Shown here one piece after another: positions 5,452 to 32,000 of a stretch of 32,000 nt of DNA. The DNA is from Nonlabens ponticola (lineage in GTDB: Bacteria > Bacteroidota > Bacteroidia > Flavobacteriales > Flavobacteriaceae), in contig NZ_CP034549.1 of assembly GCF_003966335.1 (NCBI RefSeq), forward strand, positions 1,800,001-1,832,000, given 5' to 3'. The notes beneath the pieces are model-generated. The model saw nothing but the letters and a program-made list of their open reading frames with translations, had not been told where the DNA came from and did no database searches. Every line of letters starts with the position of its first letter. Positions within the stretch are counted from its first letter, which is position 1. Position numbers and translations under genes: made by a program.

Positions 5452-6243
5452 CTAGTTATTCCACAATTCCCAGGCCTTTTCTGCTTGATGGACAAGCATC
5501 TGGTAACCGTTAGAGACTCTGGCGCCATGCTGTAAGCCCAGTTTCATAAATAGGGTAGTAGGTGGATTGTAGACCAGATCAAACAGTACGTGGCTCCCAT
5601 TTAAATGCTCATAAGGAATTGCAGGTTTACCGCTTACATCTGGATGCGTTCCCAGCGGTGTGGTATTTACAATGAGCCCTATCTGATCCAGCACATTTTT
5701 ATTAATCGATTTATAATCTATGGTGTGCTCGTCTTGTGGATCGCGACTCACTTTTAAATAAGGAATCGACAGTGCCTCCAGCGTATAAGCAATCGCCATT
5801 GATGCGCCACCAGTACCTAAAATAAGCGCGTTACTATTGATAGGCAAGAATGGTTCTAGACCTTTCCCAAAGCCATAGGCATCTGTATTATGACCTATCC
5901 ACACATTATCCTCAATGGTAATCGTATTGATGGCACCTATTTTTTGTGCCTCGTCACTCACATGGTCCATGATCTTAAAAACACTTTGCTTATACGGTAT
6001 TGTCACGTTAAGGCCTCTAATGATCTCGTGTTTTCCTTGTGTTGTGCGCTGTCGTTTGTTGTATGTTACGCTTTCGCGAAAGCTAACTAAATCATCCTCG
6101 TGCGCTATTTCAAAATTGCGGTAGTGATGATCTTTGAGCCCTAATTCCTCAAATTTATTACTGAAATAAGAGCGTGAAAAGCTATAATCCAGTCGTTCAC
6201 CAATAAGGCCAAAAATGCTATGCGGGATTTGCTTGATTTCCAT
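5452..6243 (-). CDS. aroE: shikimate dehydrogenase
   Basis: FGLIGERLDYSFS, GLNVTIPYK, NTDAYGF and LILGTGGAS (NADP-binding glycine motif). The start overlaps the upstream DUF368 gene by 26 nt. Confidence 0.9.
   Translation of the reverse strand: MEIKQIPHSIFGLIGERLDYSFSRSYFSNKFEELGLKDHHYRNFEIAHEDDLVSFRESVTYNKRQRTTQGKHEIIRGLNVTIPYKQSVFKIMDHVSDEAQKIGAINTITIEDNVWIGHNTDAYGFGKGLEPFLPINSNALILGTGGASMAIAYTLEALSIPYLKVSRDPQDEHTIDYKSINKNVLDQIGLIVNTTPLGTHPDVSGKPAIPYEHLNGSHVLFDLVYNPPTTLFMKLGLQHGARVSNGYQMLVHQAEKAWELWNN
6053..6090. repeat. palindromic element copy A, embedded in-frame in aroE
   Basis: TTTGTTGTATGTTACGCTTTCGCGAAAGCTAACTAA. It carries the CTTTCGCGAAAG core (6071-6082) plus a GT-rich left arm matching copy C (TTGTTGT..TTACG). 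Translated on the minus strand as SFRESVTYNKRQ. Confidence 0.6.
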
Positions 6244-7261
6244 AATGATCTAACAGATAAATGATGCCAAAACCTAGTCCAATAACCACGATCGCGATCC
6301 ATGTGTGCGGTTCCTGCAATGATGGGAAATAACGGGCATAGTTCTCAAGGATGGGATCACCAGCGGCATCCATCATGGTCGTACCATTCTCGGTTACTTT
6401 GTAAACCTCTTTCTTCCACGGCCATACAACGCCCAATGAGCCAGTGATAAATCCTATGATACTCGCGTTAGTCTCACCACGGTAATGTTTCATTGTCCAG
6501 CCCAATAAATGCGACAGAGTAATCAAACCCACCAGTGATCCTAAAATAAAAACGGCTAGAATTATAAGTAGATCTGTTTGAGTATCGTCATACCACCATT
6601 CAAAATTCCAGCTGAAAATCTTGACAATGGCATTGAGAAATGCGTTGATGCTATCGACCATGAGTAATACATAATTGCCTAATAATATAAGCAGAAATGA
6701 ACCACTCAAACCAGGTATGGCCATACCTGAAATGCTCACCATACCACAAAAGAATATGAAAATCAAGTTGGTATTGGTCGTTGCTGGATCTAGCAACGAC
6801 GTGCCTATACCTACCACGGCGCCGCCTAACAAAAACATGACCCTGCGACTGGTCCAGTTTTCATAATTGCGAGATAGGTAATATATCGAGCCCAGAATCA
6901 TCCCAAAGAATAGTGCCCAAACGAGAATAGGGTAGTAGCTTATCAATACATCAAAGCCCAGACTTACCGTGAAGTAACTAATGAATTCTCCCAAAATCAA
7001 TAGGAACAAAAACCGACCATTCACATACTCATAAAAACTACGGAATCTACCGCCCAACAATAATTGAAATGAGACGCCATTGAGCCGCTGGAAGGAATAT
7101 AGAAACTCTTCATAAAAACCTGCTACGTATGCTACCACGCCACCACTGACACCAGGAACCTTATTGGCGGTTCCCATAGCCATACCTTTAAGCACTAGAA
7201 AGAACTTGTCTGAAAGACTGCGAGTAGGTTGTGGATGTACTATGGTTTTTGACTTGCCCAT
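6218..7261 (-). CDS. DUF368 family membrane protein (family reported as polyprenyl-phosphate transporter, PopT-like), paralog 2
   Basis: Polytopic membrane protein with VPGVSGG near the N-terminus and a second IPGLSGS motif. Overlaps the upstream paralog by 22 nt. Confidence 0.8.
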   Translation of the reverse strand: MGKSKTIVHPQPTRSLSDKFFLVLKGMAMGTANKVPGVSGGVVAYVAGFYEEFLYSFQRLNGVSFQLLLGGRFRSFYEYVNGRFLFLLILGEFISYFTVSLGFDVLISYYPILVWALFFGMILGSIYYLSRNYENWTSRRVMFLLGGAVVGIGTSLLDPATTNTNLIFIFFCGMVSISGMAIPGLSGSFLLILLGNYVLLMVDSINAFLNAIVKIFSWNFEWWYDDTQTDLLIILAVFILGSLVGLITLSHLLGWTMKHYRGETNASIIGFITGSLGVVWPWKKEVYKVTENGTTMMDAAGDPILENYARYFPSLQEPHTWIAIVVIGLGFGIIYLLDHYGNQANPA

Positions 7262-8196
7262 CGCTCTAAGATAAGTATAAGGGCTAGACCTATCACTGTT
7301 AAAACGATCACTAATAATATCTGCGGATCACCATCAAATTGACTTGGTAAAACGCTTCTTTCAAGAAATGGAACTTCTTGACCTTCAGAATTTAATCGGG
7401 TAGAGATAACCTCTTTCCATGGCCATAGTTTGTTAAGCGACCCAATCATGAAACCTGTTAAAAGTGCGAGCGTTAAGTTTTCTTTATGTTCAAATAACCA
7501 CGTTAACGCGCGTGAAAACACCTTAATTCCTAGAATGGCGCCGATACCAATTAGCGCAATGTTTCCTAGATTGGATAACGCTTCTTTCCACTCGCCGGCT
7601 GCAATACTTTCTACCAGTCCTGTAATAGAATTGAGAACGGTTTGATAACTACCTAAAAGTAGTAATAAAAATGCGCCAGAAACACCAGGAAGTATCATCG
7701 CGATGATAGCAATAAAACCAGAAAATATTAAGTACCACCAACTATCTGGCGATCCCAATGGCTCTGCAATGGTTATATAGTAAGATATTGCCGTGCCGCT
7801 TATGATAGCTATAATCACCAGCACATTCCAATGTTTGATCTGTTTACCTATATACCAGATGCTCGCGAGCACTAATCCAAAGAAAAAAGCCCAAACCAGT
7901 ACTGGATGTTCTTCAAGCAAATAGGTGATAACCTTGGACAGACTCAATATGCTGATTAAAATACCTCCAAAAAGCGCCACGAGAAATCCTAGATTGTATT
8001 TTTTGATGGTGGCGTTGAATCCTAATTCCTTGAAATCTTTGAAAATTCCCAGATCTAGATCGTCAATTGTTCTAATCAGCTCTTCATAAATTCCTGTGAT
8101 AAATGCAATAGTACCACCACTAACGCCAGGTACTACATCTGCTGCACCCATGAGTATTCCTTTTAATATTACGCTTATGTTGCGTGGTAATGCCAT
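7240..8196 (-). CDS. DUF368 family membrane protein (PopT-like), paralog 1
   Basis: VVPGVSGGTIAFITGIYEELI and a second LPGVSGAFLLLLLG motif. Polytopic membrane protein. Confidence 0.8.
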   Translation of the reverse strand: MALPRNISVILKGILMGAADVVPGVSGGTIAFITGIYEELIRTIDDLDLGIFKDFKELGFNATIKKYNLGFLVALFGGILISILSLSKVITYLLEEHPVLVWAFFFGLVLASIWYIGKQIKHWNVLVIIAIISGTAISYYITIAEPLGSPDSWWYLIFSGFIAIIAMILPGVSGAFLLLLLGSYQTVLNSITGLVESIAAGEWKEALSNLGNIALIGIGAILGIKVFSRALTWLFEHKENLTLALLTGFMIGSLNKLWPWKEVISTRLNSEGQEVPFLERSVLPSQFDGDPQILLVIVLTVIGLALILILERWASQKP

Positions 8197-8234
8197 GAGA
8201 ACGACTAGTTATGAAATTGACTTAAAATGAAAAT

Positions 8235-9506
8235 CTACCTGTGGATTGTCTGCGTTCTGTCTGGACCTACACTAACTATTTTGATAGGAATATTGAGTTC
8301 TTTCTCAAGAAACGAGATGTAATCATTCAGCTCTTTAGGGAGCTGATCTTCAGATCTTAATTTAGTCAGGTCTTCTTTCCATCCTGGCATCTCTTCATAG
8401 ATAGGAGTAACGTTCTCTGGCTCGATATTGTATGGTAAATGCTCGATGCGTTCACCTCTATACTTATAAGCTGTTGCGACTTTGATTTTATCAAAACCAC
8501 TCATCACATCACCTTTCATCATCATTAGCTGGGTAACGCCGTTGATTTCACAAGCATATTTTAATGCAACTAGATCCAACCAGCCACATCGCCTTGCGCG
8601 TCCTGTTGTAGCGCCAAATTCATTACCTACACGTGCCATTATCTCGCCGTACTCGTCATCAAGTTCCGTTGGGAAAGGACCACTACCTACACGTGTGGTG
8701 TATGCTTTGAATATGCCGTACACTTCACCTATTTGTGTAGGTGCAACACCCAATCCGGTACAAGCACCAGCTGCTGTCGTATTAGATGATGTAACAAATG
8801 GGTAGGTTCCAAAATCTATATCAAGTAAGGATCCTTGAGCACCTTCCGCAAGAATAGACTTGCCGCTTCTTTGCGCTTGTTGCAGGTATTCTTCAGAATC
8901 TATAAAGGTGAGTTCTTTCAATTCTTTTACAGCTGCAAAAAACTCTTTTTCCAGCTCTTTGAGATCGTATTGTATATCCACATTGTGAAACCCAATCATC
9001 GCCTCGTGTTTATCTGCTAGATTGCGGTACTTTTCTTTCCAGGTAGGCAATTCAAGATCGCCTAGACGAATACCGTTTCGGCCTGTTTTGTCCATATAAG
9101 TTGGACCTATACCTTTGAGTGTAGAACCAATTTTTGCTTTACCCTTAGAGGCCTCACTGGCCGCATCCAGCAACCTGTGCGTTGGTAGGATGAGATGCGC
9201 CTTTCGCGAAAGCAATAACACCTTTTTTATATCCAGATCAAACTGTTTAAGATTGTCCAGCTCTTTCTTAAAAATCACGGGATCAATCACAACGCCATTA
9301 CCTACCACATTGATAGCTTCCTTGTGAAATATACCGCTGGGAATGGTGTGTAGGACATGCTTGATGCCGTCAAATTCTAGCGTATGACCAGCGTTGGGAC
9401 CGCCTTGAAATCTGGCAATGATGTCATAGTTGGAGGTGAGTACATCAACAATTTTTCCTTTTCCCTCGTCGCCCCATTGCAAGCCGAGCAATAAATCTAC
9501 TGCCAT
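8235..9506 (-). CDS. purA: adenylosuccinate synthase
   Basis: GLQWGDEGKGK P-loop, GGPNAGHT, TTRVGSGPFPTE and GATTGRARRCGWLD. The start codon shares 1 nt with the stop of the upstream Fur-family gene. Confidence 0.95.
   Translation of the reverse strand: MAVDLLLGLQWGDEGKGKIVDVLTSNYDIIARFQGGPNAGHTLEFDGIKHVLHTIPSGIFHKEAINVVGNGVVIDPVIFKKELDNLKQFDLDIKKVLLLSRKAHLILPTHRLLDAASEASKGKAKIGSTLKGIGPTYMDKTGRNGIRLGDLELPTWKEKYRNLADKHEAMIGFHNVDIQYDLKELEKEFFAAVKELKELTFIDSEEYLQQAQRSGKSILAEGAQGSLLDIDFGTYPFVTSSNTTAAGACTGLGVAPTQIGEVYGIFKAYTTRVGSGPFPTELDDEYGEIMARVGNEFGATTGRARRCGWLDLVALKYACEINGVTQLMMMKGDVMSGFDKIKVATAYKYRGERIEHLPYNIEPENVTPIYEEMPGWKEDLTKLRSEDQLPKELNDYISFLEKELNIPIKIVSVGPDRTQTIHR
9201..9212. repeat. 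isolated copy of the CTTTCGCGAAAG palindrome inside purA
   Basis: Exact 12-mer. On the coding strand it reads CTT TCG CGA AAG GCG = L-S-R-K-A in the conserved LLLSRKAHLILP segment. No insertion is apparent. Confidence 0.4.
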
Positions 9507-9973
9507 TATGTGTTCTTTTCGGTTGTGTTTTTAATACCGTAAAAGTATAAAGAATGATTGGTTATGGTTACATCAAACACCTCTTCAATCGTCTTTTTTA
9601 TCGACTCGATTCTAGGGTCGCAAAACTCAATTACTTCATGAGTATCATTAAGTATCAAGTGGTCATGCTGGCGATCAAAATAAGACTTCTCATAATGTGC
9701 TTGATTTTGACCAAATTGATGACGACGCACCAGTCCACAATCGAGTAACAATTCAATTGTATTATACAGCGTGGCGCGGCTCACGCGGTAGTTCTGGTTC
9801 TTCATTTTGATGTACAAAGATTCTACATCAAAATGTTCTTCACTCGCATATATCTCATCAAGAATAGCATAACGCTCAGGTGTTTTACGGTGCTTGTTAT
9901 CGTTCAAAAACTGGGTAAAAACATTGCGTACAATTTCCTGTTCTTTCTCTAGATTGTTGATAATTTCTTTCAT
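9506..9973 (-). CDS. Fur family transcriptional regulator
   Basis: 155 aa. N-terminal winged-helix-like [14 protein letters not shown]...[11 protein letters not shown] and C-terminal His/Cys cluster DRQHDHLIL...EFCDP. Metal specificity cannot be determined from the sequence. Confidence 0.75.
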
Positions 9974-9976
9974 GAA

Positions 9977-12178
9977 TTAGGATCTTGTAACGGTATCGAT
10001 ACCATTTAATTTATTGAGATTTTGCATGAGCTTTGTCAGCATACCACTATTGGGAACCACAACGGTTATTTGACCTTTAAAAACACCATCATCACTATTA
10101 AAACTAATGTTGCGTATGTTGACATGCATATTTTGAGAAATGAGCTGTGTGATCTCCTGTACTAATCCCATGCGATCTAGACCTGTCAGATGAATATCTG
10201 CCTTGTGCTCTTTTTGTGTACTATCAATCCATTTTGCACTGATGATTCGGTAGGCAAACTTGCTTTGCAAACTTATGGCATTAGGGCAATTTTTTTTATG
10301 AACTTTAATGCCATCACTTACGGTGGTAAAACCAAAAACAGGATCACCTGGAATAGGATTACAACATTGCGATAAGGTATAATCCAATTGGGATTCCTCT
10401 TTACCGAAGACCAGTTCATCATACTTTTGAGTAACCTCATCCTTATGCAAGTCCACATTCTCTGGTGCCTTGCGTATTTTATTTTTGAAAAAGGAATACA
10501 GTGCATTGCTGCGACTGTTTGCATAGTCCTTGATCATTTTATTGTCAATGCTACCTATACCAACGCGATAAAATAAATCCTGACTCGTTTTGAGTTTGAA
10601 AAATGTCACCATCTGATTGACGGTATTCTCGTCAAGCGGTATTTTTTGTGACTTGAGCTTGCGCATCAAGATCACTTTTCCTTCTTCAGAAATTGATTTT
10701 TGATCTTCCTTGAGCGAGCTCTTGATTTTTGATCTTGCTCTTGCAGTCGTTGCATAATCCAACCAGTTTTTAGTTGGTTTTTGATTGTCACTGGTGATAA
10801 TATCTACCTGATCACCGCTATTGAGCGTGTGAGATAATGGTATCAGCTTACCATTGACTCTAGCGCCACGAGTGTGAAGACCAACTTCTGTATGAATAGC
10901 AAAAGCAAAATCAAGTGGTGTAGCGCCTTTAGGTAAGGATTTGAGTTCGCCCTTAGGTGTAAAAACAAAGATTTCCTTACTATACAAGTTGAGTTTGAAT
11001 TGCTCTACAAAATCGACGGCATTAGTCTCTGAGTTTTCAAGCGCTTCTTGTAGCCTATTGAGCCACTCGTCCAAGCCATCTTCCTTGCTGCCTTGTTTGT
11101 ATTTGTAGTGTGCTGCATATCCTTTTTCTGCGATCTCGTGCATACGCTCACTGCGTATCTGGACTTCTACCCAATGACCATCTGGTCCCATGACAGTTAT
11201 ATGTAGTGCTTCATAACCAGTGGATTTAGGTGAGCTTATCCAGTCGCGCAATCGCACTGGATTAGGCCTGAAGTGATCTGTAACGATACTATAAATCTTC
11301 CATGCTAGGAATTTCTCGTTGGCACGATCACTGCGAAAAACGATGCGCACCGCAAACTTGTCATAAACTTCTTCAAAAGCAACATTTTGCTTGAGCATCT
11401 TGCGACGTATGGAGAAAACTGACTTAGGTCTTCCCTGAATTTTATATTCCAGTCCTTCTCTAGTCAAGCTCTCATCAATAATGTTACTGAATTGCTTGAT
11501 GTAAGCATCTTGTTCCTCTTTACTATCAGCAATAGATTTTGTAATGTCCTGAAAAACCTCAGGCTCTGTGTATTTCAGGCCTAGATCTTCAAGCTCTGTC
11601 TTGATATTGTATAATCCTAGACGATGTGCGATGGGCGCATATATATACAGCGTCTCACTAGCTATCTTCACCTGTTTATGAGGTGGCATGCTGTCCATGG
11701 TTTGCATGTTGTGCAGACGGTCAGCAATCTTGATGATGATCACACGGACGTCTTCATTGAGCGTCAAGAGCATCTTACGGAAGTTCTCTGCCTGTGACGA
11801 GATATCGGCCTCATTTTTAAGGTGCGAGATCTTTGTCAAGCCATCAACAATGCGGGCAATGGTGACATTAAAAAGTTGTTCAATATCTGCCAGCGTGTAG
11901 GCCGTATCTTCAACCACATCATGAAGTAGGGCAGCGGCTATGGCTGTGGCGTCTAGGCCTATTTGTTTTGCAACAATTTTGGCGACGGCGATAGGATGAA
12001 AAATATAGGCTTCTCCAGATTTGCGACGTTGTGGGCTGTGCGCCTCGACGGCAATATCAAACGCCTTGCGTATAAGAGCCTTGTCATCGTCACTAAGCGC
12101 CTGATAACTTATACGCAAGAGTTCCTTGTACTCCTTGGCAATACGTTTATTTTCTTCCTTGACGGCAACTGTACTCAT
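9977..12178 (-). CDS. rel: long RelA/SpoT-homolog (p)ppGpp synthetase/hydrolase
   Basis: HD hydrolase motif LHDVVEDT. Synthetase region GRPKSVFSIRRKM...YEALHITV. TGS-like FVFTPKGELKSLPKGATPLDFAFAIH. ACT-like C-terminus. 733 aa. Confidence 0.92.
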   Translation of the reverse strand: MSTVAVKEENKRIAKEYKELLRISYQALSDDDKALIRKAFDIAVEAHSPQRRKSGEAYIFHPIAVAKIVAKQIGLDATAIAAALLHDVVEDTAYTLADIEQLFNVTIARIVDGLTKISHLKNEADISSQAENFRKMLLTLNEDVRVIIIKIADRLHNMQTMDSMPPHKQVKIASETLYIYAPIAHRLGLYNIKTELEDLGLKYTEPEVFQDITKSIADSKEEQDAYIKQFSNIIDESLTREGLEYKIQGRPKSVFSIRRKMLKQNVAFEEVYDKFAVRIVFRSDRANEKFLAWKIYSIVTDHFRPNPVRLRDWISSPKSTGYEALHITVMGPDGHWVEVQIRSERMHEIAEKGYAAHYKYKQGSKEDGLDEWLNRLQEALENSETNAVDFVEQFKLNLYSKEIFVFTPKGELKSLPKGATPLDFAFAIHTEVGLHTRGARVNGKLIPLSHTLNSGDQVDIITSDNQKPTKNWLDYATTARARSKIKSSLKEDQKSISEEGKVILMRKLKSQKIPLDENTVNQMVTFFKLKTSQDLFYRVGIGSIDNKMIKDYANSRSNALYSFFKNKIRKAPENVDLHKDEVTQKYDELVFGKEESQLDYTLSQCCNPIPGDPVFGFTTVSDGIKVHKKNCPNAISLQSKFAYRIISAKWIDSTQKEHKADIHLTGLDRMGLVQEITQLISQNMHVNIRNISFNSDDGVFKGQITVVVPNSGMLTKLMQNLNKLNGIDTVTRS

Positions 12179-12228
12179 ACAGTAAAGTTACAGCAGTTTC
12201 AAGGATAAATCAATAGGCGATGCACTCA

Positions 12229-12270
12229 ATGTTGGTGGGTTTGTTACGCTTTCGCGAAAGCGTAATTCTT
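12229..12270. repeat. palindromic element copy B (REP-like), downstream of CotH-like gene 1 and upstream of rel
   Basis: GTTGGTGGGTTTG + perfect 22-nt palindrome TTACGCTTTCGCGAAAGCGTAA (12244-12265). It starts 24 nt beyond the minus-strand stop at 12289. Confidence 0.8.
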
Positions 12271-12288
12271 AAAATCCATATGGTAAAC

Positions 12289-13518
12289 TTATTGCACAGA
12301 AATAGTATCCTGTTTAATTACAAATTCCTCATTGAGGTAGTCCATGCGTTGCGAAAGCCATTGTTTAAGATCTTCTACATACTCCATGTATGTTGTAAAA
12401 ATGACTCTATTAGGCCAGGTCTCTCGTGCCATCATGTGGTACTTTTTATGATTGCTGATGACAGTGGGCTCAATAATTGCAGCTTGATTATCTAGGAAGG
12501 ATAATAGGCGATCTTTTTGCTCATAAAAATAGCTATATCGCTTCTTGCGCAAGGCAATAAACTCTGGATCTTCTAAGATATACTTGAGCCATTCATTATC
12601 GTCCAGTAGGTAACCTTCGATTTCATAATTATCACTGTAATTAATATTTCCAAAGCCTATATCAAAATCCCAAACTGGACCAAATTTCAATTTTCCACCT
12701 GGCTTGTAGGTAAAGTAGACACTTGAATAAAAGTTGGCATCTTGATTACGTGATATCTCTTGAAGAATGTACCAATCCACCAGCGTCTCCATATCTACAT
12801 ACTCCTTATAAGTGCTGTAATCATTTTCATTTGAATTGAAGAAAGCCTGCTCTGTGTCTAGTATAAATTGCTTGACATCTTTGAACTCTTGATCGTCCAC
12901 TGTAATGTCAGGTTCTTTGATTTTAATTGTATATTTCTTTGTGTAAATGGAGGCGTCATCTGGTTTTAATCGCGACACGTGATCTAATTCAAGAAGGTAT
13001 CCATTATCCTTGGTAATTCTGTTTTTCTGGAGTTCTATCTTTTCTGTTACCAGGAACAATCCATGCCAGTCGCCATCTATATTGACATTAAAAAATTGAC
13101 TTTGAGGAGTGTAGGATAGTTTGCTCATGCGGCTCATCTCAAACGCCAGACTATTGCGCAACATGGTTTTATCATAATAATTTGCCAGTAGAATCCATTT
13201 TTTGGCGGGCGGCATGTTGCCTATCGCATTAGATTTATCCAGCTTCATTTGATAAGGCTTCTTTGGTGCGAGCCATGTACTGTGCCCGCGATGTCTTATT
13301 TTACCACCCAGCACTGTATTACTCAAGAATGCTTCGGGATTTTCTTGTACCGTAATTACTGTATAATCATCACGAGCAATACTATCTTGAATGTTAACTT
13401 TATGAATATCAAGCGTTGGTATAGACTTACCTGGCGTGGATAGCAATATAATTGCGGCTACCACTGCGGTGACAACTATAGCCACAGTACCTAAAATAAT
13501 CAATTTTCCTTTTTTCAT
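12289..13518 (-). CDS. CotH kinase family protein, N-terminal membrane anchor
   Basis: LLANYYDKTMLRNSLAFEMSR, NVNIDGDWHGLFLVTEKIE and VWDFDIGFGN fit CotH-family patterns. N-terminal hydrophobic helix IILGTVAIVVTAVVAAIILL. Confidence 0.7.
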   Translation of the reverse strand: MKKGKLIILGTVAIVVTAVVAAIILLSTPGKSIPTLDIHKVNIQDSIARDDYTVITVQENPEAFLSNTVLGGKIRHRGHSTWLAPKKPYQMKLDKSNAIGNMPPAKKWILLANYYDKTMLRNSLAFEMSRMSKLSYTPQSQFFNVNIDGDWHGLFLVTEKIELQKNRITKDNGYLLELDHVSRLKPDDASIYTKKYTIKIKEPDITVDDQEFKDVKQFILDTEQAFFNSNENDYSTYKEYVDMETLVDWYILQEISRNQDANFYSSVYFTYKPGGKLKFGPVWDFDIGFGNINYSDNYEIEGYLLDDNEWLKYILEDPEFIALRKKRYSYFYEQKDRLLSFLDNQAAIIEPTVISNHKKYHMMARETWPNRVIFTTYMEYVEDLKQWLSQRMDYLNEEFVIKQDTISVQ

Positions 13519-13601
13519 TCAGACTGTTTCTGCTTTCATGTAGATGAGGATAAGTCATTTCCTATCTTAAAAGTCCTCATCTGGTAAATTATACTTTATT
13601 A

Positions 13602-14846
13602 CTACTCATTTACAAATTCATTATTTAGATAATCCATGCGTTTTGTAAGCCAATCTTTAAGGTCATTTACTTCTTCCTCGTATGTCATCCGCGCGACTCT
13701 ATTAGGCCATAATTTGCGCCCCAAAAGATTGTACTTCTTATGATTTCTTTGAGCGTTTTCTTGTAGCATGTTACTGGTGTCATCAATAAATTTAATCAAT
13801 GCATCTTTCTTACTGTAAAAATAGGCATAGCGCTCTTTGCGCCTGGCTATAAATTTGGGATCATCCATGATATATTTGAGCCAGTCATTACCTTCAAAAA
13901 GTAAACCCTCTATCTTGTAGCTATTGCTATAATTGATGTTGCCAAATGCGATGTCATAATCCCAAATAGGCCCTATTTTCAATTTCTCGCCAGGCTGCCA
14001 GGTCCAGTAGACGCTGCTATAAAAACTCGCGTCGTTGTTGCGAGAGATTTCTTGAATAATGTACCAATCTACAAAACTATCCATATCTACATAATCTTTA
14101 TAGGCCGTGTAATTATCTTGTTTAGCATTGAGAAATGCATCCTCAGTTTTCAATAGAAAATCTTCTATTTGTTGATACTCAGGCTCACCTGATACAAGAT
14201 TGGGTTCTTTTATTTTAAATTGATAATGTTCAGTTTTTACATAAACATCTTCCTCGTCCATCCTGTCTTTAGGCTCTATTTCCAGTAAGAAGGTGTTCTT
14301 TTTTGGTATTCTATTTTTTTGCAACTCAACTTTTTCAGTAAGTAGGTAGAGCCCGCGTGAGTCACCATTAAGTGTAACCTCATAAAATTTACTATCAGGT
14401 GTAAATTCTAATTGACTTAATCTGCTTAATTCAAAGGCTAGACTATTGCGCAGCATAGTCTTGTCATAATAATTAGCAAGTAATATCCATTTTTTGGCTG
14501 CTGGAATTCCTGCAATGGATACTGATTCATTCAGTTTTATTTGATATGGTTTTTTGGCAGTTTGCCAAGTTGTGTTACCGCGACCTCTTATTTTTCCTTC
14601 AATAACATTTCCAAAAAGAGCATTTGTTGAGTCTTTGAATGTAAAGACAGTCTCAACATAATCATCCTTGGGCACCACTTCTGCAAGATCAGGATTATCA
14701 TCATCTATTTGAAAACTTATGTGCCCGATAAAACTATTTGCTTTACTCTTTGCGATTTCTTGTTGCGATATGCAATGTGTTGAGATCGAGGCACAAAACA
14801 TAAGTAATAGAAGTTTTGATTTGCCGTAAGCTATTTCCTTCTTCAT
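13602..14846 (-). CDS. CotH kinase family protein, signal peptide (tandem paralog)
   Basis: Collinear with 12289..13518 at roughly 55-60% identity by eye: LLANYYDKTMLRNSLAFELSR, LNGDSRGLYLLTEKVE, IWDYDIAFGN. N-terminal KSKLLLLMFCASISTHC signal-like region. Confidence 0.7.
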   Translation of the reverse strand: MKKEIAYGKSKLLLLMFCASISTHCISQQEIAKSKANSFIGHISFQIDDDNPDLAEVVPKDDYVETVFTFKDSTNALFGNVIEGKIRGRGNTTWQTAKKPYQIKLNESVSIAGIPAAKKWILLANYYDKTMLRNSLAFELSRLSQLEFTPDSKFYEVTLNGDSRGLYLLTEKVELQKNRIPKKNTFLLEIEPKDRMDEEDVYVKTEHYQFKIKEPNLVSGEPEYQQIEDFLLKTEDAFLNAKQDNYTAYKDYVDMDSFVDWYIIQEISRNNDASFYSSVYWTWQPGEKLKIGPIWDYDIAFGNINYSNSYKIEGLLFEGNDWLKYIMDDPKFIARRKERYAYFYSKKDALIKFIDDTSNMLQENAQRNHKKYNLLGRKLWPNRVARMTYEEEVNDLKDWLTKRMDYLNNEFVNE

Positions 14847-16330: not shown

Positions 16331-16378
16331 GTTGCAGTTGGGTTGTTGTGATTACGCTTTCGCGAAAGCATAATCACA
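16331..16378. repeat. palindromic element copy C (REP-like), downstream of murA
   Basis: GT-rich GTTGCAGTTGGGTTGTTG followed by the 32-nt palindrome TGTGATTACGCTTTCGCGAAAGCATAATCACA (16347-16378; 15 of 16 pairs). It begins 12 nt after the murA stop. Confidence 0.8.
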
Positions 16379-17929: not shown

Positions 17930-17937
17930 ATCAAACT

Positions 17938-19823: not shown

Positions 19824-19886
19824 GTGTTGATTGGTGTTGGGTTTGTACGCTTTCGCGAAAGCGTAATCACAACCAATTACAACCAT
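19824..19886. repeat. palindromic element copy D (REP-like), most complete copy, in a convergent gap
   Basis: GTGTTGATTGGTGTTGGGTTTG + TACGCTTTCGCGAAAGCGTA (19846-19865, perfect 20-nt palindrome) + ATCACAACCAATTACAACCAT. The GT-rich and AC-rich arms are imperfectly complementary. Confidence 0.8.
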
Positions 19887-19914
19887 AAAAAAAGCTCCAT
19901 CTGGTAGATGAAGC
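19887..19914 (-). terminator. rho-independent terminator of the carbonic anhydrase gene
   Basis: The minus-strand RNA reads GCUUCAUCU-ACC-AGAUGGAGC (9 bp including one G-U) followed by UUUUUUU (plus-strand A-run 19887-19893). It begins 23 nt after the stop. Confidence 0.8.
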
Positions 19915-19937
19915 CTTGTAAGATAGGAAGCTAAAAT

Positions 19938-22142: not shown

Positions 22143-22165
22143 ACTATGATATTTACTGTTAAGAG

Positions 22166-23709: not shown

Positions 23710-23712
23710 AAT

Positions 23713-23976: not shown

Positions 23977-23985
23977 CTTTTGTTT

Positions 23986-24198: not shown

Positions 24199-24225
24199 AG
24201 CTTTTTCTTTTAAAGATAGTATAAG

Positions 24226-24260
24226 TTAGCTTTCGCGAAAGCGTAATAACAACAACTTAA
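24226..24260. repeat. palindromic element copy E (REP-like), downstream of the aldehyde dehydrogenase gene
   Basis: TTAGCTTTCGCGAAAGCGTAATAACAACAACTTAA. 14-nt perfect palindrome at 24229-24242. The left arm lacks one C relative to copies B and D. AC-rich right arm. Confidence 0.75.
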
Positions 24261-24311
24261 CGTACTACTAGTAAAATTCTAAACAAGATTAAATGTCTGT
24301 GCCTTAAGAGG

Positions 24312-25685: not shown

Positions 25686-25688
25686 AGA

Positions 25689-26375: not shown

Positions 26376-27496
26376 TATAAATCCTTGCGGTAAATACGAC
26401 GTCGCTTGTGTAGGATAGGTTCATAGTCTTTCCATAGAGCTTGTACCGCTATATTATCCTCAAGCTCTGGATTGGTCTCACACAACTCAATGCCATAATC
26501 CATAAAGTTTTGCGTCACGTTGCGGAACATCATCGCGGTAACACCTTTACCCTGTAAACGTGGATGAATACCTATCAGGTAAAAAGCTGCACGATCATTT
26601 TTCTTTTTAGCTTTCAATAAATGCATAAAACCAAAAGGCCATAGTTTTCCTTTTGCTTTTTGAAGAGCTTTAGAAAATGAGGGCATCGTAATGGCAAATG
26701 CTACCAGCTTACCTTCTTTATCCACCACGCATTCCAAATAATCTGGATTGATAAACGGCAGGTACTTTTCACGATAAAGATCGATCTGATATTGCTGGAT
26801 AGGCACGAAGGTTACCAGGTTTGAATAGGTCTGATTGAGCAATTCAAACATGGCATCGACATAGGGCTCTACTTCTTTGATATTCTTGAACTTCAAGGTG
26901 GTGAGCTCATATCTTTTGGCGATGAGATCTGCAAACTTGTGGAAGCGTTCTGGAATTGGGTTGGGTGGTATGAATTTAAACTCGACCCATTCAGCACTTT
27001 TTATGTAGCCTAGTTGTTCTAGATGTTCCTTATAATAAGGATGATTGTACCAGGTAATCATGGTGGCTAGCTCATCATAACCTTTAACAAGCATTCCTGC
27101 TTTATCCATAAGCGTAAAACCTACTGGACCTTCTGTGTACTCTAGCTTGTTCTCGCTGCCTATCTTTCGAACTTCGGCGAGTAAAGCTTTAGTCACTTCA
27201 ATATCGTCGATCATATCTAACCAACCGAATCGCATCTTAGGTTTGCCTTGCTCTTTTACTTCTAGATGATTGATGATTGCAGCGATGCGTCCTACTATTT
27301 TGCTTTCGCGATAAGCAAGAAATAGCCAGCAATCTGCATTTTGAAAAACCTGATTTTTATCAGGATCAAAATTGTCGATCTCGTCATTTATAATAGGAGG
27401 TACGTAGTATGGATTATCCTTGTAAAGCTCCATGGGAAACTTGACAAACTTTTTAATATCCTTGCGTGAGGTAATACGTTGAACAGTTAAACTCAT
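26375..27496 (-). CDS. conserved hypothetical protein, probable GNAT-fold acyltransferase-like
   Basis: 373-aa ORF. C-terminal YLIGIHPRLQGKGVTAMMF resembles the GNAT acyl-CoA-binding motif (Q/RxxGxG/A). N-terminal FPMELYKDNPYYVPP. Assignment by eye. Confidence 0.45.
   Translation of the reverse strand: MSLTVQRITSRKDIKKFVKFPMELYKDNPYYVPPIINDEIDNFDPDKNQVFQNADCWLFLAYRESKIVGRIAAIINHLEVKEQGKPKMRFGWLDMIDDIEVTKALLAEVRKIGSENKLEYTEGPVGFTLMDKAGMLVKGYDELATMITWYNHPYYKEHLEQLGYIKSAEWVEFKFIPPNPIPERFHKFADLIAKRYELTTLKFKNIKEVEPYVDAMFELLNQTYSNLVTFVPIQQYQIDLYREKYLPFINPDYLECVVDKEGKLVAFAITMPSFSKALQKAKGKLWPFGFMHLLKAKKKNDRAAFYLIGIHPRLQGKGVTAMMFRNVTQNFMDYGIELCETNPELEDNIAVQALWKDYEPILHKRRRIYRKDL
27301..27317. repeat. 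degenerate copy of the palindrome core (1-nt insertion) inside the GNAT-like gene
   Basis: TGCTTTCGCGATAAGCA versus the canonical TGCTTTCGCGAAAGCA. Encodes AYRES on the coding strand. Confidence 0.3.
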
Positions 27497-27517
27497 AAAT
27501 AATCGCTGGATAGAAAA

Positions 27518-28411
27518 TTACTGCTTTGGCGCTGGGTCTTTGTGAAAATCAAGTCGGTAACTCATACCTACATTGACCTGATAAAAACTGGGCGTATCCT
27601 TAAAATTGACCGCGCCACTGGCGTCAACTTGCCAGTCCTGATTAATCAAATAGGCTACGCCAGCACGACCTATGTCGTCACTGTAAAAGTCAGAAATCAA
27701 GGTTTGAAACTCACCGAATGCTGCCCAGCGGCGATTAATGCTATGCGTCATGGTTGCAATACCACCATAGCTAGGAAAATCCGTAGTAGCACGATCGGCA
27801 ATGAAATTGAGAACAAGTGCCCAAGGACCCCAATTGTTTTGTGTAATCAACTCAAATCGCGGTGAGATGCTAGGATCTCCTGGTGGCAGCAAGGAGTTTC
27901 TCTCGCTCAAATCAAAATTAGCTCCTACATAAACAGAAACCGCTGGAATGAGATCACGCCATTTAATGCGTCGATTGTCTTTGTAGCTATAGATATTAAT
28001 CTCGCGCTCGCCCCATTTTTTAATTGGATCGAATACCAGATACTTTGCTCCAATCGTGCTGCGAGAAAAGTTAGAAAAACTGTTATCAACGCTACCAAAA
28101 CCACGATTAATAGTCTCATCAACACTGTTAAAAGTCCCAAAATAAGAGAGCTCTAATTCTTCAACGAGAAATCCATATCGTATCTGGAATGCAAGTCCTG
28201 TAAAATCTCTTTCATATCTAAGGATATCATGCTCCTCGCTACGGTAAAAAGCAGAACCTTCAAATTGCACCACATTTGTACCAACTGAAAATGCTCCTTG
28301 TGAGCGCCCAGGATTATTAGTATTAATGGTCTCAGTATATTGAGCGATCGCAAATAGTGGTAAAGACAATACGACTACCAGTGCGATTCTCATCAATTTA
28401 TTCACTTGCAT
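27518..28411 (-). CDS. outer-membrane beta-barrel protein, MetA-pathway/phenol-degradation-like transporter family
   Basis: Signal peptide MRIALVVVLSLPLFAIAQ (an alternative ATG lies at 28393). NNPGRSQGAFSVGTNVVQFEG resembles the family's DRPG...v..g..q.E.G start. Alternating beta-strand pattern, with an aromatic residue near the C-terminus. Confidence 0.55.
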   Translation of the reverse strand: MQVNKLMRIALVVVLSLPLFAIAQYTETINTNNPGRSQGAFSVGTNVVQFEGSAFYRSEEHDILRYERDFTGLAFQIRYGFLVEELELSYFGTFNSVDETINRGFGSVDNSFSNFSRSTIGAKYLVFDPIKKWGEREINIYSYKDNRRIKWRDLIPAVSVYVGANFDLSERNSLLPPGDPSISPRFELITQNNWGPWALVLNFIADRATTDFPSYGGIATMTHSINRRWAAFGEFQTLISDFYSDDIGRAGVAYLINQDWQVDASGAVNFKDTPSFYQVNVGMSYRLDFHKDPAPKQ

Positions 28412-28478
28412 AAATCTATCTTGTACTCAAATTTAAGATTAATTAAAGAGTATCGTGAATATGCCTCTTTAATTTTGA

Positions 28479-28772
28479 TTGCAAAGATACTTTACCTTGA
28501 AATTATTACAGGCCGTTCTTATCATTCTATTAGTATATATGACGGTGCGCATCGTTGTAAAATACTTTGGCAAATCTATTTTGAGATGGGCTGGAGCGAA
28601 GGCTATGGAGCGCGTACAGCGCAACTTTAACCAAGAAAATAGCACAAGTGCAAAGAGGTCAACGGTTGCTGAAGGTGAAGTTAAAGTAGAGCGCAAATCA
28701 ACTACTCAACGTGCTCGCAGTAATCCAAATAAAACAGTAGGCGAGTACGTGGACTATGAAGAAATTGATTAA
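28479..28772 (+). CDS. DUF4834-like small membrane-anchored protein
   Basis: N-terminal hydrophobic helix LLQAVLIILLVYMTVRIVV, basic/low-complexity middle and C-terminal GEYVDYEEID, which is typical of DUF4834 as I recall it. The listed start is a TTG, so the exact start is uncertain. Confidence 0.5.
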   Translation: MQRYFTLKLLQAVLIILLVYMTVRIVVKYFGKSILRWAGAKAMERVQRNFNQENSTSAKRSTVAEGEVKVERKSTTQRARSNPNKTVGEYVDYEEID

Positions 28773-28801
28773 TTTTCATTTTTAATCAGTTTTTCCTTTT
28801 T

Positions 28802-31267
28802 ATGAGCTTTGACTTTAAAAAAATAGCACCGCATCTAGTGGTGTTTGTCATTTTTATAATTGCCGCTTTAGCTTACTTTCATCCAGTTCTCAGCAATAAA
28901 AAACTTTACCAAAGCGACATCGTCCAGTACAAAGGAAATGCTCGCCAACTCATAGAAAATAGGGCAGAGACTGGTGAGGAAATTTATTGGACCAATGCCG
29001 TTTTTGGCGGGATGCCTACTTATCAACTAGGCGCTCGATATCCTTATGACTTTATAGATGCATTGGATCGCGGATTGCGCTTCATGCCGCGACCAGCTGA
29101 TTATTTGTTTCTCTATTTTATTAGTTTTTATGTGTTGATGCTGGTGTTGAGAGTTGACTGGCAGCTAGGATTGATAGGTGCATTTGCCTTTGGATTCTCG
29201 ACATATCTAGTAATTATTCTAGGTGTAGGCCACAATGCCAAGGCTCATGCCATCGCTTATTTCCCACTCGTGTTAAGTGGTATTATTCTGGTTTTTCAAA
29301 AGCGTTATGTAATAGGTGGGTTGCTCACGGCGCTTGCCGTTGCGCTAGAATTGCAGGCCAACCATCCACAAATGACTTATTACTTGTTTATTGCGACAGT
29401 CATTCTGGGTATTGCATATCTCATTGATGCCGTGCGTCGCCAGCAATTGCCTCATTATTTCAAATCTGTCGCGATTATGGCCGTTGCCGCGTTAATAGGT
29501 TTAGGGACCAATGCTGCAAATTTGCTAGCCACGCAGCAGTATAGTCAAGAAAGTACTCGTGGACCTTCTGATCTTACTATTTCAGCTCAAGGCGAAAGCG
29601 TGCAGCCCACAGACGGTCTTGCATATGACTATATCACTCAATATAGTTATGGCCTTACCGAGAGCTTTAACCTAATCATACCTAGGTTTGCTGGCGGCGG
29701 CAGTGGCGCTAGACCAGATGAAGATTCTAATACTGTTGAGTTTTTAGAAAAATTAGGTTTACCTAAAGCTAGCGCGATGGATTTTGTACAAAATCAAGTG
29801 CCCTTATATTGGGGCGACCAGATCATCGTCGAGGCACCAGCCTATATAGGAATTACGGTGTTCTTTCTGGCCGTCATTGCTTTATTCTTAATTAAAGGAA
29901 GACTCAAATGGTGGACGTTGGGAACAGCTATTTTGGCACTCTTACTTTCTTATGGAAAGAACTTAGATTTTCTTACTCGATTCTTCGTGGATTATGTGCC
30001 ATTATATGACAAATTTAGAGCGGTTACTTCTATACAGGTATTGATTGAGTTGGTCATCCCAATTCTAGCAGTAGTCGGGTTGTATCAATTATTCAATAAG
30101 AACAACAAGCTGGAAGAAAAAGGTAAGGCATTGCTGTATGCAGCCATAGGTGTTGGCGGTTTGCTTGCCGTATTTGCAGCATTCGGTAATCAATTATTTG
30201 ATTTTGCAGGAGCTTATGATGCAGCTTACTTGCAACAAGAACAATTAGGCAGTGGCTTTGTCGATGCCTTGAGGCAAGATCGATTTGAAGTGATGCGAGC
30301 AGATAGTTTACGTGGCTTGTTTTACATAGGCGTGATTAGTCTTGCTTTATGGTTGTATTTTAAATCAAAGTTGCAAGAAAACGCGGTACTCATAATTGTT
30401 GGGATTTTTATTCTAGTGGATTTAGTAAGTTTTGATTTGAACTATGTAAACGAGGATGATTATGTGAGCGCTAGCCAATATGACAATGCATTTCAGCGCA
30501 CGCCTATAGATGAGCAGGTGTTACAAGATGATGGTTACTTCAGGGTTTATGATCAATTGATGAATCCTTTCAATAGTGCAAGAGCGCCTTATTTTCATAA
30601 TGCTTTAGGTGGTTATCATGGTGCCAAGCCACGTCGCATTCAGGAGATAGCAGACTTCTATCTTTTTGATCCACAATTGGGAATGCGCTCAGGCCTCAAC
30701 GAGCAAAATCAACAGATCTTGAGCATGTTCAATGTCAAGTATTTGATCGACGTTGATGAGGAAGGTTTACAATTAGTTGAGAATAGAGAAAACTTGGGTG
30801 CCGCATGGTTTGTGAAAGAGTTGCAAGTAGTCAATAACGCTGATGAAGAAATGCTAGCACTAGCAAACCTTGATGGTAAGAAACGAGCTATCATGCAGCA
30901 ATCAGAACTGGAGAAAATAAGTTTGAGTAATATCTCTGTAGATTCCACAGCACAAATCAGATTGATCAGTCACTCACCAGAACAAATGGTGTATCAAAGC
31001 ACCAATAGCAGCGATGCACTTGCCGTATTTTCTGAGGCCTATTATCCGCATGGTTGGATTGCAACTATTGATGGATTAGAAGTTCCTATCGCCAGGGCAA
31101 ACTATGCCTTGCGTGCGCTCAAGGTTCCTGCTGGTAGCCATAAGATAGAATTCACTTTTGAACCAGACGTAGTTGAGACCGGAACGGCTATCATGTTGAC
31201 AAGCAACGTCTTGCTGATTTTGCTATTGCTAGGAGGTACTTTTTATCTCGTACGTAAAAAGAACTGA
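28802..31267 (+). CDS. YfhO-family polytopic membrane protein (GT-C-like glycosyltransferase)
   Basis: 821 aa. Many TM helices in the N-terminal ~560 aa, a large soluble domain, then a final C-terminal TM helix. N-terminal HPVLSNKKLYQSDIVQYKG...YWTNAVFGGMPTYQ is typical of the flavobacterial YfhO-like family. Confidence 0.6.
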   Translation: MSFDFKKIAPHLVVFVIFIIAALAYFHPVLSNKKLYQSDIVQYKGNARQLIENRAETGEEIYWTNAVFGGMPTYQLGARYPYDFIDALDRGLRFMPRPADYLFLYFISFYVLMLVLRVDWQLGLIGAFAFGFSTYLVIILGVGHNAKAHAIAYFPLVLSGIILVFQKRYVIGGLLTALAVALELQANHPQMTYYLFIATVILGIAYLIDAVRRQQLPHYFKSVAIMAVAALIGLGTNAANLLATQQYSQESTRGPSDLTISAQGESVQPTDGLAYDYITQYSYGLTESFNLIIPRFAGGGSGARPDEDSNTVEFLEKLGLPKASAMDFVQNQVPLYWGDQIIVEAPAYIGITVFFLAVIALFLIKGRLKWWTLGTAILALLLSYGKNLDFLTRFFVDYVPLYDKFRAVTSIQVLIELVIPILAVVGLYQLFNKNNKLEEKGKALLYAAIGVGGLLAVFAAFGNQLFDFAGAYDAAYLQQEQLGSGFVDALRQDRFEVMRADSLRGLFYIGVISLALWLYFKSKLQENAVLIIVGIFILVDLVSFDLNYVNEDDYVSASQYDNAFQRTPIDEQVLQDDGYFRVYDQLMNPFNSARAPYFHNALGGYHGAKPRRIQEIADFYLFDPQLGMRSGLNEQNQQILSMFNVKYLIDVDEEGLQLVENRENLGAAWFVKELQVVNNADEEMLALANLDGKKRAIMQQSELEKISLSNISVDSTAQIRLISHSPEQMVYQSTNSSDALAVFSEAYYPHGWIATIDGLEVPIARANYALRALKVPAGSHKIEFTFEPDVVETGTAIMLTSNVLLILLLLGGTFYLVRKKN

Positions 31268-32000
31268 TGCAATCTTCTATATACATCGTTTGCTATTACT
31301 GGCCACCGGCTGGCGGACCTGGCGTGCAGCGATGGTTGACAATGTCTCATTATTTAGTTGAATCTAATTACCACGTCACCGTCGTGATTCCAGAAAATGC
31401 TGATTACCCAGTCACAGATGCAAGCCTGACCAATGACATAAATCCAAAAATCACCATCAAAAAAATTGCCATCAAGGAACCAACCCGATGGATAAAAAAG
31501 ATTCTAGGTGGTAAGACTGCACAGCTACAAAAAGGTATCTTAAATAAAAAACCTGGACTGCTGGAACGCGCATTACTTTGGGTGCGTGGTAATTATTTTA
31601 TTCCAGATGCTCGTAAATCATGGGCTGATAGAGTAGTGCAGGAGCTAGAAAATGATTCTGCTTTCGCGAAAGCAAAAACTCTCATAACGACTGGACCACC
31701 ACATTCTGTACATCTCGTAGGATTGAAATTAAAAAAGAGGTTTACTAAAAACATCGAGTGGATCGCGGACTTTAGGGATCCATGGACTACCATAGGCTAT
31801 CACGACAAATTGCGATTATCGCTAAATGCTCAAGAAAAACACTTAAAACTTGAAAAGCAAGTGCTAGACAGCGCAGATAAATTGCTGGTAACAAGTCCTA
31901 CAACAAGAGCAGAATTTGAAGCCAAAACCAAAACAGCAATAACTGTCATCACCAATGGCTTCAACATAGAACCTAACAATACATCACAACCAGCTGGAAA
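31267..32000 (+). CDS. glycosyltransferase family 4-like protein, C-terminus beyond the window
   Basis: Not in the ORF track because it has no stop in the window. My translation from the ATG at 31267 (shares 1 nt with the YfhO stop TGA) is MQSSIYIVCYYWPPAGGPGVQRWLTMSHYLVESNYHVTVVIPEN...TTGPPHSVHLVGLKLKKRF...FRDPWTT, and the frame stays open to nt 32000. Confidence 0.6.
   Translation, partial: MQSSIYIVCYYWPPAGGPGVQRWLTMSHYLVESNYHVTVVIPENADYPVTDASLTNDINPKITIKKIAIKEPTRWIKKILGGKTAQLQKGILNKKPGLLERALLWVRGNYFIPDARKSWADRVVQELENDSAFAKAKTLITTGPPHSVHLVGLKLKKRFTKNIEWIADFRDPWTTIGYHDKLRLSLNAQEKHLKLEKQVLDSADKLLVTSPTTRAEFEAKTKTAITVITNGFNIEPNNTSQPAG
31659..31674. repeat. copy of the palindrome core inside the GT4 gene
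   Basis: TGCTTTCGCGAAAGCA is a 16-nt perfect palindrome containing the exact 12-mer. It reads TCT GCT TTC GCG AAA GCA = S-A-F-A-K-A. Confidence 0.4.

Follow-up and report, generated by a model that had tools for sequence, protein, structure and literature searches.

We analyzed a 32-kb window of the Nonlabens ponticola genome (NZ_CP034549.1, positions 1,800,001 to 1,832,000; positions below are counted from its first letter), in which a preliminary description had pointed out a recurrent 12-nt palindrome, CTTTCGCGAAAG. Exact copies start at positions 6071, 9201, 12249, 16357, 19850, 24230 and 31661. At the G+C content of the window (39.8%) base composition predicts about 0.0015 copies, and no copy appeared in any of 100 dinucleotide-preserving shuffles, so that the copy number is indeed far above chance, as had been claimed. 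Among the 10- to 12-mers of the window, the palindrome and its extensions are the most repeated by a wide margin. A search allowing two mismatches added a variant with a 1-nt insertion (27301-27317) and a site at chance level (21628). Gene content was derived from the analysis of open reading frames (ORFs) and their homologies, together with annotated orthologous loci of relatives. The AroE and the aldehyde dehydrogenase encoded here match N. ponticola proteins with 100% identity. Four copies (12249, 16357, 19850 and 24230) are intergenic and three (6071, 9201 and 31661) lie inside conserved genes. The seven exact copies and the insertion variant were thus found where they had been reported, with the gene context correct in every point that could be checked.

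The three coding copies are read in different frames and give the peptides originally noted. Copy 1 (6066..6087, TTACG-CTTTCGCGAAAG-CTAAC) lies inside aroE on the minus strand and reads V-S-F-R-E-S-V. Copy 2 (9196..9217) is located inside purA, also on the minus strand, reads L-S-R-K-A-H and consists of the core only, without TACG/CGTA flanks. Copy 7 (31656..31677) reads S-A-F-A-K-A-K inside a GT4-like glycosyltransferase gene on the plus strand. For aroE, five genomes with 56-78% protein identity all carry (C/A)GCTTTCGCGAAAGCGT at the same place, and copy 1 is exact in the related loci L141-L144. Every synonymous position of the aroE segment CGCTTTCGCGAAAGCGT is kept in the five species, while neighbouring codons vary. 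Since all three frames are used and the synonymous positions of aroE are kept, the nucleotide sequence rather than the peptide is conserved, which bears out the preliminary description.

The window shares 72.4% identity with Nonlabens marinus over 24 kb, and 2.6% of the 12-mers are exactly conserved. All six aligned motif sites were exact in this comparison (P = 2.8e-10), synonymous positions included. Four of five aligned sites were exact in Nonlabens sp. Hel1_33_55 (P = 6e-6) and two of three in BBFL7. Copy 3 is a perfect 22-nt palindrome, TTACGCTTTCGCGAAAGCGTAA (12244..12265), situated in the intergenic region 29 nt past the stop of a CotH gene and 71 nt upstream of where relA/spoT starts. 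This relA-upstream copy is exact in four Nonlabens genomes; in the three other than N. ponticola it lies 70-85 nt upstream of relA, although the upstream neighbour gene differs. Copy 4, the near-perfect 30-nt palindrome GTGATTACG-core-CATAATCAC (16348..16377), is found in intergenic DNA 38 nt past the murA stop, and both N. marinus and Hel1_33_55 have an exact copy there. In a Nonlabens metagenome-assembled genome (MAG; L057) the murA copy is degenerate (CTTTCGCATAAG) and shows two compensatory outer-stem changes. Copy 6 (24225..24246, GTTAG-core-CGTAA), located between an aldehyde dehydrogenase gene (70 nt past its stop) and a 70-aa Hva1_TUDOR-like ORF (32 nt before it), recurs without change at the corresponding position of N. 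marinus, Hel1_33_55 and BBFL7, and copy 7 is exact at the same site in the first two. Copy 5 (19845..19866, GTACG-core-CGTAA) lies in a convergent intergenic region and has no aligned orthologous site in the three Nonlabens genomes compared. Pairs of loci that had been collected by an extended form of the motif and share only 69-77% identity (L052/L107, L106/L122 and L129/L137) likewise keep the core exactly. Because the core is exact at orthologous sites amid diverged sequence, these comparisons indicate purifying selection, or an equivalent drive, acting at the DNA level. A fluke cluster or an assembly artefact, which had been considered at the outset, can be rejected, as the same sites recur in independent genomes.

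The copies appear to have more than one origin. At the purA site there is no indel relative to the orthologues, which marks a substitution-type origin. The exact core is present only in N. ponticola and N. marinus, and near-matches occupy the site in Hel1_33_55 (CTTTCTGGAAAT), BBFL7 (TTTTCTTGAAAT) and Dokdonia ponticola (TTTACGCGAAAT); the peptide S-R-K-A-H is the same wherever it was translated. A copy in pfk (L141:17097), common to three genomes, encodes T-A-F-A-K-A-K in a helix that, by comparison with E. coli PfkA, seems to be of normal length, and presumably arose by substitution. AroE is different. Nonlabens-type AroE has 259-265 aa compared to 243-251 aa in other Flavobacteriaceae genera, and the ~13 extra residues (R-F-R-E-S-V-x-Y-N-x-x-Q-R-T-T-N-G-K) correspond to the motif plus an A/C-rich flank. 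In the window this lineage-specific stretch spans 6034..6090 on the minus strand and reads ..L-V-S-F-R-E-S-V-T-Y-N-K-R-Q-R-T-T-Q-G, with an A/C-rich, G-poor 3' flank. The segment is an insertion relative to solved AroE structures as well. The degenerate copy TGCTTTCGCGATAAGCA (27301..27317), read as F-L-A-Y-R-E-S, lies inside a GNAT-like gene on the minus strand. Three Nonlabens genomes carry the 1-nt-insertion form at this site, Hel1_33_55 with the same sequence as the window and N. marinus with GCGAAAAGC. Dokdonia MAG-19 (L116:6052) has an exact core there in a different frame, with a 16-nt indel alongside. Both routes therefore exist: new copies arise by point substitution at tolerant codons, as in purA, and some, as in aroE and the GNAT gene, are located in small indels specific to a lineage.

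An alignment of 215-247 copies from related genomes yielded the 22-nt consensus TTACG-CTTTCGCGAAAG-CGTAA, in which the G/C adjoining the core hardly varies. The 17-mer TACGCTTTCGCGAAAGC served to collect most of these loci, which skews positions ±1 to ±4 in favour of the consensus and leaves positions beyond unbiased. In the left flank, from -5 to about -24, C is reduced to 9% compared to a background of 19%, and T and G are enriched; the right flank is the mirror image. This bias is present in coding copies of each frame and in 55 strictly intergenic copies. In the latter, T peaks at -4, -8 and -11, and the extended footprint measures ~50 bp. Beyond ~22 nt the flanks share composition, not sequence. 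Species dialects are visible in the flank (TACG in Dokdonia, TTCG in N. marinus). In 115 kb of unselected sequence we counted 29 exact copies and 3, 2 and 33 copies with one, two and three mismatches, where an order-3 Markov model predicts 0, 0.2, 3.3 and 35, respectively. Exact and one-mismatch copies stand at a ratio of ~10:1. Two thirds of the one-mismatch forms deviate only at the outermost base, which sets the strict core at TTTCGCGAAA.

To define the taxonomic range, the 17-mer was compared with one genome per species. At least 120 stretches matched, and among the matches listed nearly all belonged to Dokdonia, Nonlabens or unnamed Flavobacteriaceae. A few single matches, in an archaeon, a Myxococcota MAG and a Saprospiraceae MAG, resemble chance. 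Abundance was measured in unselected loci, fetched via orthologous proteins and not via the motif; being orthologous, these loci are non-independent samples. N. marinus, Hel1_33_55, BBFL7, Dokdonia sinensis and one MAG had 3-7 exact copies per 21 kb. Together with the window this amounts to 49 exact copies in about 200 kb from six Nonlabens/Dokdonia genomes, or ~1 per 4 kb (range 3-5 kb), where the order-3 Markov model expects 0. The excess seen in the window is hence not local. Extrapolation, as distinct from a count, gives ~600-700 copies in a 2.9-Mb genome. In a 21-kb Galbibacter locus the motif was absent, and no 12-mer whatever was repeated. When 80 metagenome loci (~1 Mb) encoding aldehyde dehydrogenase relatives were scanned for k-mers without bias, only two kinds of iterated G+C-containing palindrome stood out. 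These were the highly iterated palindrome HIP1, GCGATCGC, in cyanobacterial loci, which served as a positive control, and the present motif in one Dokdonia-like locus (L150). Among these ~80 diverse loci no analogous motif of another lineage was detected except HIP1. The cyanobacteria-like loci L202, L219, L207 and L203 contained HIP1 or CGATCG-containing repeats, and unrelated short repeats were found in L195 (ACTCAGCACT, 13 times) and L216 (CAAACACCAA, 9 times).

The motif is also carried by phages. In IMG/VR contigs 20 stretches matched the 17-mer, several with multiple copies. One of these, L014 (UViG_3300039191_000376), encodes portal, protease, major head protein, adaptor and tape measure genes, and its three cores are ~4.5 and 5.1 kb apart, a density and spacing like those of the host. 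L008, L010, L011, L013 and L020 are related to it and make up a family of siphovirus-type contigs carrying the motif. Contigs of this type are probably temperate phages of Dokdonia or Nonlabens. Among GenBank phages only chance matches in unrelated phages were obtained, with a 30-mer query that reports matches of at least 17 nt and does not reach 12-mers.

Placement in genes was assessed with a simple, crude ORF model. Of 223 copies, 119 (53%) were coding and 104 intergenic. As 86% of that DNA is coding, intergenic DNA is ~5-fold enriched per base. The coding copies are read as A-F-A-K-A (60), L-S-R-K (32) and R-F-R-E-S (27). Intergenic copies are distributed over co-directional, divergent and convergent gaps in proportion to gap length; in co-directional gaps they lie a median of ~21-25 nt past the upstream stop and ~80-108 nt from the next start. 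The spacing is conspicuously even. The eight sites of the window, the insertion variant included, are 3.0-4.4 kb apart (coefficient of variation (CV) 0.15, P = 1e-4 versus random placement), and for the seven exact sites alone the regularity remains (P = 0.015). In 77 independent 8-kb blocks with at least two copies, 3 adjacent spacings were below 1 kb and 13 below 2 kb, compared to 26.4 and 47.8 expected, and no simulation reached either value. Among 256 copies a single pair was closer than 700 nt (L090:5297 and 5385, 88 nt apart, intergenic, in a Nonlabens MAG). The gaps in L150 are 4.6, 4.6, 4.1 and 6.6 kb. Copies repel each other, which is the opposite of clusters of repetitive extragenic palindromes (REP) and bacterial interspersed mosaic elements (BIME) and is unexpected under random insertion or mutational bias.

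These data bear on the first of the roles initially offered, a REP/BIME-like repeat family. REPs resemble the motif in being short, hairpin-capable palindromes that lie near gene 3' ends when intergenic. They are, however, extragenic, imperfect, tagged with GTAG/CGTC and often arranged in inverted doublets or clusters (PMC3733652, PMC2817692). The motif has an exact core and no such tag, about half of its copies are in genes, and they avoid each other. [quoted passage not shown] In a wider form, the copies would belong to a small mobile palindromic element of the REP/REPIN, MITE or Rickettsia-palindromic-element kind, spread by a transposase encoded elsewhere; none was present among the window ORFs examined. 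Three observations would suit such an element: the aroE copy and its A/C-rich flank form a 13-residue Nonlabens-type insertion, indels lie beside the motif at the GNAT site, and intergenic copies are enriched. The lineage-specific in-frame extra segments of aroE and GNAT are in fact what likens the motif to Rickettsia palindromic elements. The latter are mobile units of 100-150 bp, whereas here the conserved body is ~22 nt and not ~100 nt or more, with flanks alike in composition but not in sequence. The purA and pfk copies show no insertion, and the sites are not polymorphic but of old standing and conserved in position. Given also the missing tag, the near absence of close pairs and a spacing that random insertion would not produce, we consider a mobile element decidedly unlikely.

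Mutational explanations can be judged from the same data. A methyltransferase acting on TCGCGA or CGCG, combined with short-patch mismatch repair, could turn near-matches into the motif, which would then be a functionless by-product of biased repair; a repair-bias model was once proposed for HIP1. The motif contains TCGCGA, and its commonest internal one-mismatch form across all loci is CTTTCGCAAAAG (7 cases versus 1 for the inner C). This form represents a C-to-T change at the first C of TCGCGA on the opposite strand, as expected if that base is methylated, and such decay bias hints at methylation of this position. Carriage by a resident phage would fit as well. For HIP1, however, conservation has been taken as selection and not repair bias (PMC5861425). 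Near-matches of the present motif are not in excess (2 two-mismatch copies versus 3.3 expected), and neither the even spacing with its depletion of close pairs nor a specificity of 12 to 22 nt with a 20-nt flank bias is explained by repair. We therefore rate biased repair as very unlikely.

A Chi-like signal, which would halt AddAB/RecBCD and load RecA, was considered as well. Being palindromic it would act in both directions, and the G/T-rich 5' strand would be the RecA-loading zone. The density of ~1 per 4 kb is near that of Chi in E. coli, on either strand G and T are abundant and C is scarce in the 20 nt 5' of the motif, and carriage by a phage would protect its DNA. Known Chi sites are 5-8 nt long, asymmetric, read in single-stranded DNA and oriented with replication, and a 12- to 22-nt palindrome shares none of these properties. 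A sequence identical to its reverse complement, as this one is, has no means of marking strand orientation. A Chi-like role appears the least probable of the explanations weighed here.

The core had also been proposed to fold as a stem with a CGCG loop, which holds for the consensus but not as a feature common to the copies. The 22-nt consensus hairpin folds at -8.3 kcal/mol, and the intergenic copies at 12249 (-17.2 kcal/mol predicted, z = -4.2), 16357 and 19850 fold much better than shuffled sequences. In contrast, neither the copy at 24230 nor any of the three coding copies outdoes shuffled sequences in folding, and the flanks are almost without covariation. In the large seeded set, left and right flanks are complementary just as often as the product of the marginals predicts. 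Excess complementarity in the unbiased and non-seed sets occurs at ±3 only (26 versus 17, P = 0.004, and 21 versus 14, P = 0.03, respectively), and this covariation may partly reflect the TACG and TTCG species dialects. Intergenic copies show a marginal excess at ±5 to ±7 (P = 0.03), coding copies none. As coding copies fold like shuffles and flank covariation is almost absent, structure is not the common denominator. What the copies have in common is the sequence, in two nearly independent half-sites, and not a fold.

A function in RNA was nevertheless weighed, because a palindrome gives the same hairpin from either strand and might act as a terminator, 3'-end stabilizer or processing site. 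Copies in co-directional gaps hug the upstream stop, three of the four intergenic copies of the window fold far better than shuffles, and both the compensatory changes in L057 and the slight complementarity excess of intergenic copies would suit an RNA element. The N. marinus copy L145:15767, downstream of murA (L145:15752-15783), is a perfect 32-nt palindrome, AAAAAGTTCG-CTTTCGCGAAAG-CGAACTTTTT, with A5 on one side and T5 on the other. It has the look of an intrinsic terminator that works in both directions and has the motif at its centre. A subset of the intergenic copies has been extended into long hairpins of this kind, some of them probably acting as terminators. As an account of the motif at large, however, an RNA role meets several obstacles. 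About half of the copies are inside genes, where they show no covariation, and divergent intergenic regions hold their proportional share. The 3' flank is A-rich and not T-rich, a hairpin needs no exact sequence, and no copy matched a hairpin plus T-tract terminator pattern. The terminator reading as such was rejected, since a T-tail is lacking, flank polarity is reversed and copies occur in divergent gaps and genes. A canonical intrinsic terminator with a 12-bp stem followed by TTTTT is present at 19891-19917 on the minus strand, downstream of a beta-carbonic anhydrase gene and ~30 nt from the copy at 19850, where termination thus seems to be handled by a separate hairpin. No covariance model of Rfam 15 matched anywhere in the window at E <= 1, and a scan of the whole window for tRNA and tmRNA yielded nothing. 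A hammerhead-like reading, suggested by GATGAG upstream of some copies, was dismissed, as the stem is not followed by GAAA and Rfam gave no match. Taken together, an RNA-level element is unlikely. RNA hairpin, mobile element, repair bias and Chi-like roles are all less likely than the two DNA-level functions discussed below.

HIP1 offers one close comparison. Both HIP1 and the present motif are short exact palindromes with a restriction-type hexamer and are over-represented by orders of magnitude (PMC5861425; PMC4390886). Both are clade-specific, occur in coding DNA (in all frames) and in non-coding DNA, and are conserved at orthologous sites above background; one-mismatch variants are biased to the outermost bases and placement is non-random and regular in either case. 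HIP1 has been described as selected, conserved and periodic (PMC5861425). Two marks of a HIP1-type element, over-representation and presence in coding and non-coding DNA with orthologous conservation, were found here. HIP1 belongs to another phylum, however, has another sequence and is 8 nt long, whereas the present motif has a strict 10-12-nt core, a 22-nt consensus and asymmetric flanks of ~20 nt. The motif is ~4-fold sparser than HIP1 (1 per ~4 kb), its regularity takes the form of short-range repulsion at 2-5 kb instead of a 10-90 kb periodicity, and its one-mismatch copies are barely enriched, unlike those of HIP1. Because sequence and phylum differ, it is an analogue of HIP1 and not a strict member of that class.

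A second likeness is to the uptake signal sequences (USS) of Pasteurellaceae and the DNA uptake sequences (DUS) of Neisseriaceae. These have a 9-12-nt core with weaker extended flanks and number from hundreds to thousands per genome, some of them within genes and there in the least costly frames. They arise through point substitution, persist between related species, form taxon dialects, drop steeply in number at one mismatch, and double in some intergenic places as hairpin terminators, as does or may the present motif. The steep drop and evolution by point mutation have been documented for USS and DUS (PMC1939737), and accumulation of the same type is seen here in the purA substitution site and the mismatch spectrum of 29, 3 and 2. 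USS and DUS are asymmetric and denser, whereas the motif is palindromic and of lower density, and the likeness is one of sequence pattern. The motif matches the USS/DUS pattern point for point except for its palindromy. It looks like a so far undescribed relative of HIP1 and the uptake sequences that is a strict member of neither. Searches of 8 million full texts yielded no description of the 12-mer, the 10-mer or palindromic repeats in Nonlabens, Dokdonia or Bacteroidetes, in keeping with the original remark that no element with this core was known.

We therefore tentatively favour, with less than even confidence, a reading in which CTTTCGCGAAAG forms the core of a DNA signal of the HIP1/USS class that is very abundant in the Nonlabens-Dokdonia lineage of the Flavobacteriaceae, specific to this clade and kept by selection, and whose likeliest use is that of a self tag for DNA uptake or recombination. 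Of the three roles first offered, an uptake-sequence-like motif and a protein-binding site fit the data best. Since variation in one half-site is nearly independent of the other and the copies share a sequence and not a fold, we infer that the motif is read on double-stranded DNA by a protein of two-fold symmetry. The cell would gain from about one site per few kb and nothing from a second site nearby. Any such one-per-segment function predicts repulsion, because a nearby second site costs in coding sequence without gain. As a self tag, the motif would favour the uptake or recombination of conspecific DNA in natural transformation. If site-bearing fragments are preferred, drive and selection would multiply the sites until no stretch the size of a fragment is without one. 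The intergenic copies that have been extended into long hairpins may also serve as terminators, as with USS and DUS. HIP1 has been reported to boost transformation and was proposed as an uptake sequence (bioRxiv 10.1101/2024.09.10.611283; 10.64898/2026.06.24.733823). Riemerella, which PMC7965970 places in the Flavobacteriaceae, shows natural competence and a preference for its own DNA.

Several points weigh against an uptake tag. The aroE and GNAT copies lie in indels, which pure substitution and drive does not predict. Natural transformation is not known for Nonlabens or Dokdonia, and no annotation ties the motif to competence. Known uptake sequences are non-palindromic and about four times denser than the motif. 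The siphovirus contig with the motif at host-like density and spacing fits maintenance or protection in cis at least as well as uptake drive. The C-poor and G-poor flanks are left unexplained by an uptake tag, and the even spacing fits an architectural role equally well.

The main rival to the uptake tag is such an array of nucleoid-organizing or maintenance sites. Here the copies would be bound by a clade-specific nucleoid-organizing, membrane-tethering or partition-type protein, with one dimer per palindrome, and the ~4-kb spacing would be the size of a loop or domain. The very regular spacing in the window and in L150, the depletion of close pairs, the nearly independent half-sites and an integrated phage with sites at host-like intervals all speak for it, and so does the ~50-bp footprint with its composition bias and T peaks, which persists in strictly intergenic copies. 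HIP1 authors favour a role in chromosome structure (PMC5861425), an idea of this kind having been put forward for the periodicity of HIP1, and the array resembles Noc and its binding sites (NBS) and ParB/parS. The motif shares with parS (TGTTTCACGTGAAACA) and NBS (ATTTCCCGGGAAAT) the form of a 14-16-bp palindrome of the TTTC...GAAA type that is possible in genes, where the present sites are conserved too, and is bound by a dimer on duplex DNA. In contrast, parS and NBS sets number a few to tens and are regional, whereas the motif has hundreds of evenly spread copies and agrees with them at only 3 of 7 half-site positions. No known architectural set comes near a number of exact 12- to 16-bp sites that runs into the hundreds per genome. 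Known nucleoid proteins accept degenerate sites, while here one mismatch is apparently not tolerated, and no candidate binding protein was identified. A site array of this kind is possible, though we doubt it. In the more specific form in which the sites anchor a clade-specific DNA-binding protein and split the chromosome and resident prophages into ~4-kb units, the flanks being its extended footprint, it is somewhat more doubtful. If correct, anchoring every ~4 kb would amount to a chromosome architecture or maintenance system that is encoded in the sequence and evenly spaced, and for which no bacterium offers a described precedent.

Short motifs that are both very abundant and selected are uncommon, and what they are for has long been a puzzle; HIP1 has lacked an explanation for 30 years. 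The present motif provides an independent second system in another phylum that is longer, more specific, sharply exact and regularly spaced, and it permits a comparative test of uptake tag, nucleoid organizer and repair by-product. Should the uptake or self tag be correct, sequence-specific natural transformation would operate in abundant marine Flavobacteriaceae, with a bearing on gene flow in the ocean and species cohesion, and the 22-mer added to donor DNA could improve genetic tools for these bacteria. The motif can serve as a near-diagnostic metagenome marker of Nonlabens/Dokdonia DNA and of their temperate phages. For annotators, the protein segments R-F-R-E-S-V, A-F-A-K-A and L-S-R-K should be taken as shaped by a constraint at the DNA level.

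Two further features of the window were noted. One is a tandem pair of paralogous CotH-kinase-family genes on the minus strand (12289-13518 and 13602-14846; Pfam PF08757, E = 3e-41 and 1e-45). Both encode apparent signal peptides, and the pair is absent at this position in the other Nonlabens loci compared. Between purA and aroE lie two overlapping genes for DUF368/VCA0040-like membrane proteins (6218-7261 and 7240-8196, minus strand), an arrangement that is kept in all Nonlabens loci examined.

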